Source: Eledone cirrhosa
Taxonomy: Eukaryota
Direction: 5' to 3'
NCBI GenBank assembly: GCA_964016885.1
Contig: OZ024763.1
Location: 12,400,001-12,464,000, forward strand
DNA: 64,000 bases
Shown: positions 35,901 through 62,805 of the stretch, one piece after another
Position numbering within the stretch: position 1 is the stretch's first letter
How the letters are laid out: the number at the start of each line of letters is the position of its first letter
Made by a program: the position numbers and the translations under genes
The notes under the pieces: model-generated
The model's database searches: none
The model's input: the letters and a program-made list of their open reading frames with translations, nothing else
What the model was told of the DNA's origin: nothing

Positions 35901-38900
35901 ACGATTGGTCTAAGCACCCCTCCGTTCTCGCCCTCATTGCTGCCCAACAATGCCCAGCACTTGGTAAGTCTTTCGCAGTCGTTGATCAGTTTCAGCAGCA
36001 GCAGCAGCAGCATCGAACAGTGTCTTCATCATCAGTGTCATCATCATCAATGTCATCATGATCAGCAACAGTATCATCATCATTGCCATCATCACCATTT
36101 AATGTTTGTCTTCCTTACTAGTGGAGCTACTGACATCTCAGTTGGGATGGGAGGGGGGGGGGTTGTATCTCATTGACATGTTCCCAAACTCTACTGGGTC
36201 TTCAATAGCTGGGGATCTACTGGGTCTTTAATAGCTGGGATCTACTGGGTCCTCAGCTGGGGATCTACTGGATCCTCAATAGCTGGGGATCTACTGGGTC
36301 CTCAATAGCTGGGATCAGCTGGGGATCTACTGGGTCCTCAATAGCTGGGGATCTACTGGGTCTTCAATAGCTGGGGATCTACTGGGTCCTCAATAGTTGG
36401 GATCTACTGGGTCTTCAATAGATGGGGATCTACTGGGTCCTCAATAGTTGGGATCTACTGGATCCTCAGCTGGGGATCTACTGGGTCCTCAATAGCTGGG
36501 ATCTACTGGGTCCTCAATAGCTGGGGATCTACTGGGTCCTCAGCTGGGGCTCTACTGGGTCTTCAGCTGGGGATTTACTGGGTCCTCAGCTGAGGATCTA
36601 CAGGGTCCTCAATAGCTGGGGATCTACTGGGTCCTCAATAGCTGGGGATCTACTGGGTCCTCAGCTGGGGATCTACTGGGTCCTCAGCTGGGGATCTACT
36701 GGGTCCTCAGCTGAGGATCTACAGGGTCCTCAATAGCTGGGGATCTACTGGGTCTTCAATAGCTGGGATCTACTGGGTCCTCAATAGCTGGGGATCTACT
36801 GGGTCTTCAGCTGGGGATTTACTGTGTCCTCAGCTGAGGATCTACAGGGTCCTCAATAGCTGGGGATCTACTGGGTCTTCAATAGCTGGGAATTACTGAG
36901 TCCTCAGCTGGGGATCTACTGGGTCTTCAGCTGGGGATCTACTGGGTCCTCAGCTGGGGATCTACTGGGTCCTCAATAGCTGGGGATCTACTGGGTCTTC
37001 AATAGCTGGGGATCTACTGGGTCCTCAATAGCTGGGATCTACTGGGTCCTCAATAGCTGGGGATCTACTGGGTCTTCAATAGCTGGGATCTACTGGGTCC
37101 TCAGCTGGGGATCTACTGGGTCTTCAGCTGGGGATCTACTGGGTCCTCAGCTGAGGATCTACAGGGTCCTCAATAGCTGAGGATCTACTGGGTCCTCAGC
37201 TGGGATCTACTGGGTCCTCAGCTGGGGATCTACTGGGTCCTCAGCTGGAGTCTACTGGGTCCTCAATAGCTGGGGGTCCACACTTCACTTGCATGTATTC
37301 CTCCATTTTATCATAGCACCAACTCTAGTGAGGTTGGGTCAGGAACATGACAACATCTCTATTTTGGTGATTTATACGATAAACGCACCCAGTACACTCT
37401 GTAAAGTGTTTGGTAATAGGAAGGACATCCAGTTGTAGAAAACCTGCCAAACAAAAGGTCGGGTGGACTCTTCAGTTGTCAATGATACAACAACCATAAA
37501 ATGCATTTGGTAGAGCAGAGGGTTGGATTTAAGTGGGATGCAAGCCCCTGGCTTATATGACAGGTCAGTAACCCCATTTGCTATACATATATATATATAG
37601 TTATAATAATAAATGTGAAGACTAAAATCTAAAGAGGGCTCAATAAATATATATATATATATATATATATCAATGATATTAATAAATGGAAACTATATTT
37701 ATAAAACCATATTTATTCTATTATATATATTTCAAGGGTACCAAAACTTTGGTACGCTTTCATCAGATAAAATGCAAAATTTGCTTTAAAGTGACATACC
37801 CAGGAATGAAGCCTTAACAGTTCAGGTTCCGAATTAAATATCTCTTTGCTTATATATATATATATATATATATATATATATATATAGAAGTGGTTACACA
37901 ACAGTTAGTTCACCATACCGAGAGCCATTGTTTCACCTTAGCGCATCCTCAGCCTGAGGATGCGCTAAGGTGAAACAATTGTTCTCGGTATGGTGAACTA
38001 ACTGTTGTGTAACCACTTCTACCTAACTCGTCCCATGTACTGAGTGCTCTACCACTACGGATATTACCTTCCAGTGTTCCACCGCTATATATATATATAT
38101 ATATATATATATATATATATATATATATATATATATAGGAAAAAGTATGACCCCGACGGCAGAGCTCAAGCCATTTCGACAGCTATTTCTGGATTAAATT
38201 AGAATTTTTAGCCTGGTCAAAAATTCTAATTTAGTCCAGAAATAGCCGTCGAAACGGCTTGAGCTCTGCCGTCAGGGTCATACTTTTTCCCATTTCCCAC
38301 TCTACTACCCTAAGTATTGAGTACTCTGGTGCATTATGGTCCATCTGGTTCCTTACCACATTTCCTTTGTCATATATATATATGCACACACATACACACA
38401 CACATACACACTTGTGTGTAGAAGGGGGTAATCCCTAAATTTCCACCCCACTCATGACGATACTATATATATAAGTGTGTGTCCTAAATCTCCACCCTCA
38501 ACTCCTGACCATGTGTGTGTGTTTCTATCATAAATCTCTACTTCAAATCCTGGCCATGGCAATTATAATGATATGTGTGTATATATATATATATATATAT
38601 ATATATATATATATATACATATATATAGTAATAACTTATAACTTTTTTACTTATACCTCTTACACCTTTAACCAGTGCTGCCTGTAATTGTGTTCTTTCA
38701 AACATAACACCTTGTTAACTCCTGACTCTCCACATGATGCCTATGACACTAACAATAATTATGTACCCTAAATGTTCTGAATGTCTAGGATTTTAGTCAC
38801 ATGTTTCGACATTCCCCATGCTCAGATGATTCCAGACTTCCCTCTGGAAGAAACAATTGTCAGCAAATAAATGTTCTAAACTAAAACTTGATTGTTTTAA

Positions 38901-41900
38901 CACTTTGTGTGTATATATATACATACATGGCTTAGTGGTTAGAGCATTGGTCTTGCAATCGAAAGGTTGGGAGTTCAATTCTCAGACCGGGTGATGTGTT
39001 GTTTCCTTGAGCAAGACACTTTATTTCACATTGCTCCAGTTTACTCAGCTGTAGAAATGAGATGATAGGGACTGGGGTCCCTATCATTCCACTGTAAAGT
39101 GGACATGTAGGTGCCACGGCAAAAAAGCACCCAGCCCACACTGTAAATGAGGTTGGTGTTAGGAAGGGCATCCAGCTGTAGAAATCAAGCCAGAATCAGT
39201 TCCCGTCCCACCCTTGCAATCAGGGAAAAGTGGACGTAATAATGATGTATGTGTGTGTGTGAGTCCTAAATCTCCTCCCTAACTCCCCATATTTTCACAG
39301 TTGTTCTAACCCAATGTCTCTATGTTCTTACTTCCAGTTTGAGAAAATCCCTCGATATGAGCCATCATTCTACCGCCAAGGAGTAAGTTATCAACATATT
39401 CTATAACTGTTGTTGTTGTTGTATCCAGTTTAACCCTTTAATGTTCAAACCGGCCAAAACCAACCAGAATTCTCTACCTCTTTCTGTTGAAACTGGCTGT
39501 AACTGGTTGCTCAAACTGATGTTAAGATATTGTTCTCAAAATAAATACTTTCAAAATCTCATAGATTCGAGATAATTATAGATGTGAGATAATTATGTGA
39601 GGTAAAGCCTTTACTGTGTGAAAATATAACATTATATATAGAGTAATGTGAATACTAAAGGGTTAAAACAAGTACACTGTATCTCTGCATGTCAAAGTGA
39701 CTGAAACAGATTCCACCAGTAAAGCCATTTGCCTAAAGAATGCCTCAAAAAAAGCTATTTGTGTGGCCTGCAAGACAGCTGAAATGGACTAAAATACATA
39801 ATACATACATTCCTCTAAAAGATACTATAAAGATTTAAATTAACAAACCTGTTTTTACATATTTTCTGCTAAATCATCCCAGAATGTGTAACCTTGTTTT
39901 ATAAATACTACTACTACCACCACCACTACTACTAACAAAGCTAACTCATTGTAATAATTTGTGTTATTTCTCCATAGATTCCTGGACTCAGTTATGCTCT
40001 ACCCTCACTGCTGACCCCAGCTGCGCCAGGGACTGCTCCTTTAAATTCGGGAATACCTGGAGCTTTTCAACCCAAAGTAAGTCTTCTTTCTTGCCTTTCA
40101 TGTTTAGTTTTTGTTTCCTTCCATTTTTTGGTATCTTGGCAGAATTTGTTAATTTTTCAGATGAAATCAGATGCCTTGTGGTATTTGTTTCTGTTTTTTG
40201 TTTTGACTTTGAATCCCTCTGAAATTAATTACTGAAGAGGTGGGTGTGGGAAGGGGGGCAATCTAATCAACTACACCCCCCTCTTCTCTCCTCAGATTGC
40301 TGGCCATGTGCCAAAATAAGGTAGTTGATTGACAGAATTGGTCATTCATCAGACCAGATCTTTAGGTTCTGAGTTCAAATCCCTTAACACTCCTGGGGTA
40401 GATAAAATATGATACCAGTCAACTATTACGGTTGATTTAATCAAACAGAACCTCCTCTCAGATTTCTGATCATGTATCTAATTTAGGAACCTTTATTATA
40501 TATAACTAGCAGAAAATACACCCTTCGGGTGGTTTTCAGCTAGCATGTGTAGTGTGTATATTGGTATTATACACAAGTATATATACATGTAGATATGATA
40601 CATCAAATAAAATCGTAATTGACAATATACACAGAAATTGAACGAAGACTGTGTTACACTGTCTTCTGTAATCAGTAAAGTAATCCATGATACATTTAAA
40701 AGAGATGATATTATATATAAACTGCATTAGGGTGAAATGTTATGAAAACGAAAAAGGAGAAAATTAGCGACGGAAATAAACGTTATGATATAACGATGCA
40801 AGTTTATGAATGTTTATATAAGAGATGTGATATAACGTCAGTTATATCATAACTGGAAGTATTGACATTTGAAAATTTTAAAAGAAGTGAGTGTTGGACT
40901 TTCAACGGTAATGCCATCTGTTCAATCTTCAGGACCATGTGTTGTGTTCTTGAGCAAGACACTTCATTACACTCAGCTGAAAATGAGTACCAGCAGTGGC
41001 TGGAAAGTTAACTCTGTGGTGGATTGGTGTACTGGCATGGTGAGCATCTGGGCTTGTGACAGACCATCCATCTTAGGGGTACATCATCTGACTCCCACCC
41101 CTATGTCATAACACACATTTAAACTGCCACCCCACCTGTCTCAACGGACCATCAACCCTTGGAATGCATCATATGATCCCCACCCTGGGGCCATATCATG
41201 TGACCTCCACCCCTATGTCATAACATGTATTTAAACTGCCACCCCTGTCTCAGCAGACCACTCACCCTAGGAGATACATCATGTGATCCCCACCCTGGGG
41301 CTATATCATGTCACCTCCACCCCTATGTCATAACATGTATTTAAACTATCACCCTTGTCTCCACAGACCATCAACCCTGGGGCCATGTCATCAGACCCAG
41401 CTTTACTGTCTCTTCGAGAACGTGTGAAACCTGGGCCTTCTCCTGTGACACCAAAGGTAACTAACTACACACCCTTTTTAATTCCTCTCCAGCCATGACC
41501 ACCCCTGTCAAGGTGTGTGGCCAAGTGGTTAGGGCATTCAACTCACAATCATAGGGTTGTGTGTTCGATTCCTGGATCTGGCAATGTGTTGTGCTCTTGA
41601 GCGAGACACTTCATTTCACATTGCTTTTCATGACAGGACTGGAGTAGGGGATCCCTATCATTAAAAAAAACACCCGAGAACCCTCAGAGAAGGCCAGTTA
41701 CACCTTTACAGATGTGAGCTGTAACAACATTAGCGCCCTTATTAAAAACACCTGAGAACCCTCCAGTTAGATGTAACAACATTGGAGCCCTTATTAAAAC
41801 ACCTGAGAACCCTATTATTCGATGCAACCTCAGAGAAGGCCAGCTACACCTGTACAGATGTTAGCTGTAACAAGGTGTGTATGTGGCCTATTGGTTATGG

Positions 41901-62738: not shown

Positions 62739-62805
62739 TATATTTTATTATACGTATTTCAAAGGTACAATGGTGTTTAAGTACGTTTTCATCAGATAAA
62801 ATATA
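62739..62805 (-). ncRNA. Minimal type I hammerhead ribozyme
   Basis: Minus strand reads TATATTTTAT-CTGATGA-AAACGTAC(loop)GTACCTTT-GAAA-TACGTA-TA^-ATAAAATATA. This gives a 10-bp stem I, a stem II and a palindromic stem III. Confidence 0.75.

Follow-up and report, generated by a model that had tools for sequence, protein, structure and literature searches.

What are the two hammerhead-like motifs on the minus strand, at 62739-62805 and 37714-37774, of a 64,000-nucleotide stretch of Eledone cirrhosa DNA (assembly GCA_964016885.1, contig OZ024763.1, positions 12,400,001 to 12,464,000; hereafter the window), and what kind of mobile element do they mark? The initial annotation had read them as two covarying copies of a minimal type I hammerhead ribozyme belonging to one TA-associated family. 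Judged by sequence, both motifs are the 5′-truncated pseudo-long terminal repeat (pLTR) ends of two autonomous Penelope-like element (PLE) families of the Hydra clade, here called A and B, and the type I hammerhead that they contain is real, covaries and marks a TA-associated Penelope-like mobile family. We are highly confident of the identity as Hydra-type pLTR ends, and consider it probable that the best overall explanation combines such ends with a ribozyme that cuts and a template that is likely circular.

Both motifs were found in the window sequence with the stems and the C.C opposition first described for them, in the order stem I, CUGAUGA, stem II, GAAA, palindrome, UA and stem I′, so that the type I hammerhead core CUGANGA...GAAA...UH is present in order. 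The base of stem II reads AAA/UUU at 62739-62805 and AAG/CUU at 37714-37774, with C.C at the fourth position in both, and the stem III palindrome is UACGUA in the former and UAUAUA in the latter. In the family A hammerhead (copy A; 62739-62805, minus strand) the core occupies 62789-62795, stem II 62761-62788, GAAA 62757-62760 and the palindrome 62751-62756, with the predicted cut after the A at 62749. The corresponding elements of the family B hammerhead (copy B; 37712-37776, minus strand) are the core at 37760-37766, GAAA at 37730-37733 and the palindrome at 37724-37729, with the predicted cut after the A at 37722. In copy B the distal extension of stem I is partly missing, and the fold of lowest energy is not the hammerhead.

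Motifs of this kind might resemble a hammerhead by chance in AT-rich repeat DNA, an explanation that suits the low folding energies (-5.5 kcal/mol for 62739-62805 alone) and the lack of an Rfam match. Within the window, the bare core pattern matched 8 times, compared with 0.77 +/- 0.93 in 100 shuffles. A genome-wide search, proposed in the initial annotation, recovered further copies conserving core and stems in large numbers: the pattern derived from both copies had 3,115 exact matches in the 3.0-Gb genome (reversed control, 0), relaxation of stem II gave 81,887 (control, 218), and a pattern with C on both sides at the fourth position of stem II and more palindromes gave 75,148, against 1 for its reversed form. 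This excess, the covariation described below and the position of the motif, which occupies the pLTR site where 59 of 79 outside relatives also carry a hammerhead, leave chance likeness with a negligible probability. The genome contains at least 75,000 ribozyme copies, about 25 per Mb. When the same core was searched with a base other than A at position 17, 2,328 matches were obtained (control, 114); position 17 is A in about 97% of the copies (81,887 vs 2,328, from two patterns that differ slightly in stem III), in agreement with the AUA triplet that had been proposed for the predicted cut.

Pairing was assessed in 84 copies, a positional sample made of the loci around the first matches on contig C1. 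Positions 1-3 of stem II paired in 71, 82 and 81 copies and positions 5-7 in 73, 78 and 73; position 4 paired in none of the 84 and was C.C in 74. Positions 1-5 of stem I paired in 78-82 copies. Among the medoids of 17 clusters, a test from which 33 singletons were excluded, 184 of 187 cells were paired, compared with 149.6 +/- 3.3 in shuffles and 78-96 when the partners were slid. An alignment of 18 hand-picked sequences had 93.8% of its cells paired against 80.0 after shuffling and 30-52% with slid partners, and 55 double (compensatory) changes against 19.1 in shuffles. Compensatory changes back stems I and II, and the covariation first noticed between the two window copies extends in this way to the larger group.

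The description of the hammerhead as minimal did not hold. Helix III has 2 bp and a palindromic tetraloop, stem II at least 7 bp, and the long stem I extends past an internal loop in folded family members, so that the motif is not a minimal hammerhead. The minimal hammerhead of PLEs (min-HHR), as defined by Cervera and de la Peña (2014, PMC4209133), has helix III cut to core nucleotides, an extra base between 9 and 10.1, and G10.1-C11.1; in our set helix III keeps its 2 bp and tetraloop, the extra base is missing, and the 10.1-11.1 pair is G-C in 8 of 84 copies, A-U in 44 and G-U in 19. The A10.1-U11.1 pair, called atypical in the initial annotation, is common but not fixed, and the Octopus Hydra hammerhead tabulated by Craig et al. 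(2021, PMC8557442) already shows it. Inspection by eye of a different register of stem II, in which a base bulges after A9, led to its rejection, as pairing in the GGA and GGU families is disrupted by it. Position N7 was T/A/G/C in 161/27/13/5 of 206 motifs. In the same motifs, the stem III palindrome was UAUAUA in 119, UAUGUA in 69, UGCGCA in 12, UACGUA in 4 and another in two; UACGUA, correctly reported for copy A, is therefore a minority form, and UAUGUA predominates at the family A loci examined. Calculated energies of stem III were +4.7 kcal/mol as a hairpin and -2.2 to -10.5 as a duplex. The palindrome is thus too weak alone, as had been supposed, and this behaviour fits the dimer idea of Cervera and de la Peña. 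We consider it probable that the family ribozyme is catalytically competent.

The same ribozymes stand beside Hydra-type open reading frames (ORFs) at other loci, which supplies the autonomous reverse transcriptase (RT)/GIY-YIG partner foreseen in the initial annotation; in the window itself a Hydra-type ORF was not found. The family B hammerhead lies on the same strand before and after the ORF in L084, L087, L088, L090, L096 and other loci, and most of 20 long family-B loci, chosen for long open frames, carry a hammerhead beside the ORF, on the ORF strand and/or inverted. The family A hammerhead is located about 1.2-1.4 kb 3′ of its own ORF (e.g. L214, L217, L218, L224 and L226), which was traced through the family A 3′ untranslated region (3′ UTR). 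The ORF of L036 was rejected as the family A partner, as it belongs to a sister family with a UGCGCA palindrome. The ORFs of families A and B are 45-70% identical by segment, and the sister family has a third ORF, 45-49% identical to that of family B. The window copies belong to two different families within a much larger group, and not to one as first supposed.

Hydra protein hallmarks were found in the ORFs of both families: the RWK/DKT motifs, here as RWR (K to R) and SDKT, a YRDD motif and a CxCx5C linker, with no CxC motif and no IFD. Read by eye, the C-terminus forms a GIY-YIG-like domain without CCHH, in which CxxC precedes the conserved E and CxH follows N. A telomerase-like RT in a single ORF, as in PLEs generally, is indicated by YRDD and by colinearity with 38 homologues, and the predicted fold (mean predicted local distance difference test score, pLDDT, 81.6) had TERT as its best match (E 1.1e-8). 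Pfam searches with ORF pieces gave nothing significant, and the PDB searched by sequence gave no match.

Related coding sequences were also observed outside families A and B. Loci L182-L201 (e.g. L191, 3398-5827) hold Hydra-type ORFs of about 810 aa in many near-identical copies, and this ORF family is probably young. The UTRs at these loci are long and rich in microsatellites, and the UGCGCA ribozyme was not found within 9 kb in any of the 20; ORFs related to this set adjoin a UGCGCA ribozyme in L167 and L180. Other GIY-YIG fragments adjoining family copies, at 3-503 of L028 (plus strand; PF01541 in Pfam, E 1e-4) and 427-858 of L035 (plus strand), probably represent other Penelope-like families. 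P0003, a protein from public reads, has a derived MGSSDSAQITDLVG motif that is also present in the octopus ORFs, to which it may be the nearest relative from outside.

The organization of a long copy is illustrated by L090, which consists of a TA run, an inverted arm of about 460 bp, a 5′ pLTR of about 890 bp, the ORF, whose start lies about 190 nt beyond the cut site, a long 3′ UTR, the 3′ pLTR and a TA run. With a unit of 4,091 bp and about 890 bp repeated, L090 is a more-than-unit copy, whose internal junctions read as short AT alternations. The arrangement typical of PLEs, with the pLTR in partial tandem, an inverted 5′-truncated copy and a one-sided tail, was seen in L090, L087 and L088. 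The motifs could instead come from a non-autonomous retrozyme, as the initial annotation had considered, or from a family resembling miniature inverted-repeat transposable elements (MITEs), in which short tandem or inverted units are mobilised in trans. Such an origin would agree with the lack of a Hydra-type ORF in the window, the shortness of most copies, the MITE-like inverted pairs that include 17 of 78 sampled copies, and the derivation of animal retrozymes from PLE pLTRs described in a preprint (bioRxiv 10.64898/2026.07.22.740005). It is contradicted by the structure of the copies, which have no fixed 5′ end, form no tandem arrays of 150-450 bp and, when longer, continue unbroken into the 3′ UTR and ORF. 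Same-strand neighbours within 1 kb were present for 2 of the 78 sampled copies, both being separate insertions parted by a TA run, and a 713-bp same-strand pair in L034 duplicates the flanks as well. ORF-less tandems of 150-450 bp, each with a hammerhead, as in non-LTR retrozymes, were not seen in the loci examined. We regard the retrozyme or MITE-like explanation as very improbable, and for families A and B the retrozyme reading is largely refuted.

The 3′ ends of the insertions gave a clear pattern. In six families they fall at two sites, about 45-58 nt (short end) and 130-155 nt (long end) beyond the predicted cut, with a (TA)n run after each; the end counts for family A are disturbed by an internal TA run. 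In the positional sample, 45 of 78 copies had the short end, 23 the long end and 10 neither, so that a TA run stood at one of two fixed ends in 68 of 78 copies. The (TA)n insertion characteristic of the Hydra clade is thereby found here. The earlier view that the hammerhead marks a TA-associated Penelope-like mobile family was correct. Target-site duplications are unreadable inside (TA)n. Public contigs, from three runs of unknown kind of one sample, have TA loose ends at L090 positions 3015 and 3108, which are the same two end sites. The tail between the short and the long end measures about 90 nt in all six families; it keeps an ACUC...GAGUGC motif in 51 of 70 long ends and a terminal hairpin of -3 kcal/mol or better in 57 of 70 (raw count), with a sequence that differs between families.

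The two ends are combined in a strict manner in two-armed insertions. Of 38 divergent pairs, 30 were of the same family by an identity cut-off, and 10 of these had an unclassifiable end. All 20 insertions with both ends classifiable paired a long with a short end, with no long-long and no short-short combination, an outcome with a probability of about one in a million if the ends were independent (0.5^20, by arithmetic). The 8 pairs left out by the cut-off added 3 more long plus short and none of the other two kinds. The ORF was found in either arm. Inverted arms were 99-100% identical in L069, L105, L110, L114, L132 and L133, an indication that some families inserted recently. Two primings, one per nicked TA strand, are the simplest explanation of the long-plus-short rule. 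All mapped insertion ends are located 3′ of the predicted cut, and since the cDNA continues through that site, the template must be intact there, either uncut or re-ligated.

These observations can be accommodated in the following model. The hammerhead would likely cut the element transcript at AUA, probably as a dimer in which two UAYRUA palindromes pair to build stem III. Luense et al. reportedly worked on hammerheads as dimers in 2017. The cut RNA would likely re-ligate into a circle, as in the model proposed by Cervera and de la Peña in 2014 (PMC4209133), and it is this circle that would be reverse-transcribed during insertion into (TA)n. Priming would occur at two fixed AU-rich positions of the RNA, with each nicked TA-repeat strand starting one cDNA, and the two cDNAs would join at their truncated 5′ ends. 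Most insertion events would stop early and leave ORF-less fragments like the window copies. For the circular RNA template itself, the chances appear to us evenly balanced.

The same elements might use a linear, uncut read-through RNA as template, with a hammerhead that cuts rarely or rides as a passenger; rare cutting could trim the 5′ end or limit expression, and the tail would result from endonuclease resolution and not from two priming sites. A template intact at the cut, implied by the location of every mapped insertion end downstream of it, is what this explanation predicts, and copies that end at the cut are almost absent. Craig et al. credit the 30-40 bp tail of PLEs to endonuclease-mediated resolution and state that hammerheads may simply parasitize PLEs (PMC8557442), metazoan PLE hammerheads are described as having low in vitro activity (PMC4209133), and AUA, although natural in eggplant latent viroid (ELVd), was the slowest of the four ELVd triplets tested (PMC1636495). 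However, stems I and II carry compensatory changes in at least 14 clusters, which shows that the fold has long been under selection, and a tail of about 90 nt in six families, with its ACUC/GAGU motif and hairpin, fits an RNA signal better than a nuclease stagger. A linear template is a possibility that we take seriously while doubting it; lasting selection on the fold and the existence of more-than-unit copies make us favour the circular template.

A further-reaching version of the model is doubtful in our opinion: that the octopus Hydra radiation evolved its own hammerhead and that all two-armed insertions arise by twin priming from circular RNA. The outer C-G pair of stem III would have been lost, giving rise to the UA-repeat palindrome and AUA, together with a conserved C.C in stem II. 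Twin priming would start from two fixed sites, separated by about 90 nt and located immediately beyond the junction where the ribozyme was re-ligated, with two conserved hairpins steering it. The chemistry of insertion would in this way be recorded in tens of thousands of copies.

A number of observations speak against our interpretation as a whole or against its parts. Regarding the fold, the pairs with a double change in the 18-sequence alignment were just 12, compared with 9.4 in shuffles (19/500), and further pair types were 23 vs 23.3; moreover, relatedness among the sequences inflates the shuffle comparison, which can exceed its control without any structure. The core and stem III letters were imposed by the search patterns, and their conservation is for this reason no independent evidence. 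The Rfam hammerhead models, suggested as a check in the initial annotation, matched neither copy A nor copy B at E<=10, and no hammerhead was among the best 150 of 282 Rfam matches to the entire window. As no Rfam model matches, the identification rests on the core motifs and covariation; an Rfam match is not a defining feature of type I hammerheads. Regarding the protein, Pfam was silent on full ORFs and detected GIY-YIG below threshold in one related fragment. A fully intact ORF was not found among 40 long loci picked for long open frames, in searches that scored 124 of 56,713 candidates, and 150. The ORF of L077 is full-length (741 aa) with the catalytic aspartate lost, and those of L078 and L079 are broken near the end. 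Regarding the circle, read-through of tandem copies also explains more-than-unit copies, and within one unit 4 kb separates the two ribozymes. PLE hammerheads assayed in print cleave poorly even as dimers (PMC4209133), and the PLEs called Naiads are reported to spread without canonical hammerheads (PMC8557442).

With the families defined, the copies in the window could be delimited. Copy A is a 5′-truncated pLTR fragment of Hydra-type family A at 62692-62840 (minus strand; blastn and sequence reading), about 150 bp long, whose 5′ side abuts the remains of another repeat. Its 3′ terminus is the short end, about 55 nt beyond the predicted cut, followed by a (TA)n run at about 62665-62688; by blastn, the span 62840-62665 is 88-92% identical to family A loci L007, L205 and L209. 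Copy B (37670-37850, minus strand; blastn) is a complete small two-armed insertion of family B, flanked by (TA)n runs at 37643-37669 and 37851-37886 and 84-89% identical to L035, L091, L033 and L092. Its short-end arm covers about 37670-37828, and the approximately 19 nt at 37832-37850 resemble an inverted long 3′ end when compared by eye with the long end of L001. Both copies reported by the initial annotation are there, but a third member was missed: a two-armed insertion of a family with GG/CC in stem II, at 34853-35116 (minus strand; ends approximate), with (TA)n on both sides, a hammerhead with UAUGUA and AUA at 34911-34959 and an inverted long tail on its 5′ side. The predicted fold of this copy has a long stem I hairpin, which was discounted as ribozyme structure since it arises from the inverted arm.

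The host locus is an AUTS2-like gene with 11 exon matches at 20110-54945 on the plus strand; one window exon shares 95% identity with the Octopus bimaculoides AUTS2 homologue, which identifies the host as an octopod. The introns of this gene contain copy B and the third copy, and copy A sits 7.8 kb past its last coding exon, all three ribozymes being antisense to the gene. Of the plausible hammerhead motifs within the gene, 6 of 7 are antisense, a sample too small for a test.

Several other hammerhead-like motifs were noted in the window. One at 24330-24410 (minus strand; core 24354-24402) combines a full stem III, in which CAG/CUG closes a 9-nt loop, with a GUC triplet, and could conceivably fold as a monomer. 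Another, at 45259-45283 (minus strand), belongs to a truly minimal hammerhead family with a CUAG stem III and GUA, also present in L093, L094, L195 and L197; L197 carries three same-strand minimal hammerheads (160, 695 and 1264) spaced about 535-570 bp apart, possibly a retrozyme-like tandem. CUGANGA...GAAAC motifs of other repeat families occur at 37887-38010 (cores 37931-37952 minus and 37954-37975 plus), 63070-63297, 62006-62028, 40900-40932 and 10630-10653; some are fold-back pairs between TA runs, and they often share TA sites with the studied family. A near-perfect inverted repeat between TA runs at 38151-38277, frequent in the genome, yields spurious microRNA matches in Rfam.

The basic identity of the motifs, a Hydra-clade PLE end with a hammerhead, is ordinary: this is a real feature of a known kind of element, in which the ribozyme is a variant and the insertion ends are recorded with unusual clarity. 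The role of PLE hammerheads and the origin of tandem and inverted insertions were stated to be open by Craig et al. (2021, PMC8557442). On both matters the octopus family offers a very large natural sample, with many covarying subfamilies, two sharp 3′ ends and a strict long-plus-short rule, and it adds a hammerhead form missed by Rfam. Twin priming from circular RNA, if true, would give one mechanism for the pLTR, the inversion and the one-sided tail of PLEs, and would make the role of their hammerheads directly testable. If the ribozymes are active, one may speculate that the direction in which they lie in introns, together with the near-perfect inverted arms, could have consequences for host pre-mRNA and for the load of double-stranded RNA; a genome-wide depletion of hammerheads in sense orientation would indicate cleavage in vivo.

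Compared with known systems, the elements are closest to the Hydra clade of PLEs with a C-terminal endonuclease (EN+), published with its hammerheads and (TA)n targets and including an Octopus member, Hydra-1_Obim (PMC8557442); the suggestion that the family might be undescribed in this lineage must be qualified, since the clade itself is described. Craig et al. delimit the clade by protein tree and not by triplet. Shared with the Hydra clade as they describe it are the single ORF with RT and C-terminal GIY-YIG without CCHH, the RW(K/R), DKT and CxCx5C motifs, the hammerhead in the pLTR, the (TA)n targets, the partial tandem with an inverted 5′-truncated copy and the one-sided tail. The printed start of the Hydra-1_Obim protein is colinear by eye, without a computed identity, with the ORFs studied here. 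This element of O. bimaculoides represents a different family, its hammerhead having another stem II and a GUU triplet, and all Hydra rows of File S2 show a C15.2-G16.2 pair and a GUH triplet (PMC8557442), whereas the hammerhead of the present families has AUA and the C.C form of stem II and not the Hydra-typical GUH. The unit is also larger (about 4.1 kb vs generally under 3 kb in published Hydra elements), the one-sided tail longer (about 90 nt vs 30-40 in published PLEs; PMC8557442) and the copy number very high. In 79 metagenome loci with related ORFs (32-40% identity), a hammerhead was found by descriptor in 59; the C15.2-G16.2 pair and the GUH triplet were present in 74 of 74 of these outside-relative hammerheads, and stem II C.C occurred in 0 of 74. 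In one outside relative, L256, stem I is similar and a C-G pair encloses an identical six-base palindrome; loss of that pair is consequently a plausible origin of the AUA form.

Resemblances extend to other ribozyme-bearing elements. The PLE type I hammerheads of Cervera and de la Peña (PMC4209133) have the pLTR location, type I topology and unstable palindromic helix III in common with ours, and likewise occur mostly solo and in opposite-strand pairs 100-700 bp apart, with a predicted dimer. Animal non-LTR retrozymes (PMC7229834) are alike in their type I hammerhead, weak helix III and very many copies, the axolotl hammerheads numbering 126,247 in all; they differ in being ORF-less tandem repeats of 150-450 bp, whereas the present copies are truncated ends of ORF-bearing elements. 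The ELVd (+) hammerhead (PMC1636495) has a natural AUA triplet in common with our families, but is a viroid ribozyme with stable helices and of unrelated origin. The main text of the 2026 O. vulgaris repeat annotation names Penelope-like elements, with no Hydra, hammerheads or ribozymes in that part, and neither the AUA/C.C ribozyme form nor the long-plus-short rule was found in the PLE, hammerhead and octopus-repeat literature searched, which included few subscription papers and no Repbase or Dfam. The Hydra clade, its hammerheads and one Octopus member are, in conclusion, already in print, and the ribozymes described here are set apart from the relatives examined by three features: the AUA triplet, the C.C opposition in stem II and the tail of about 90 nt.

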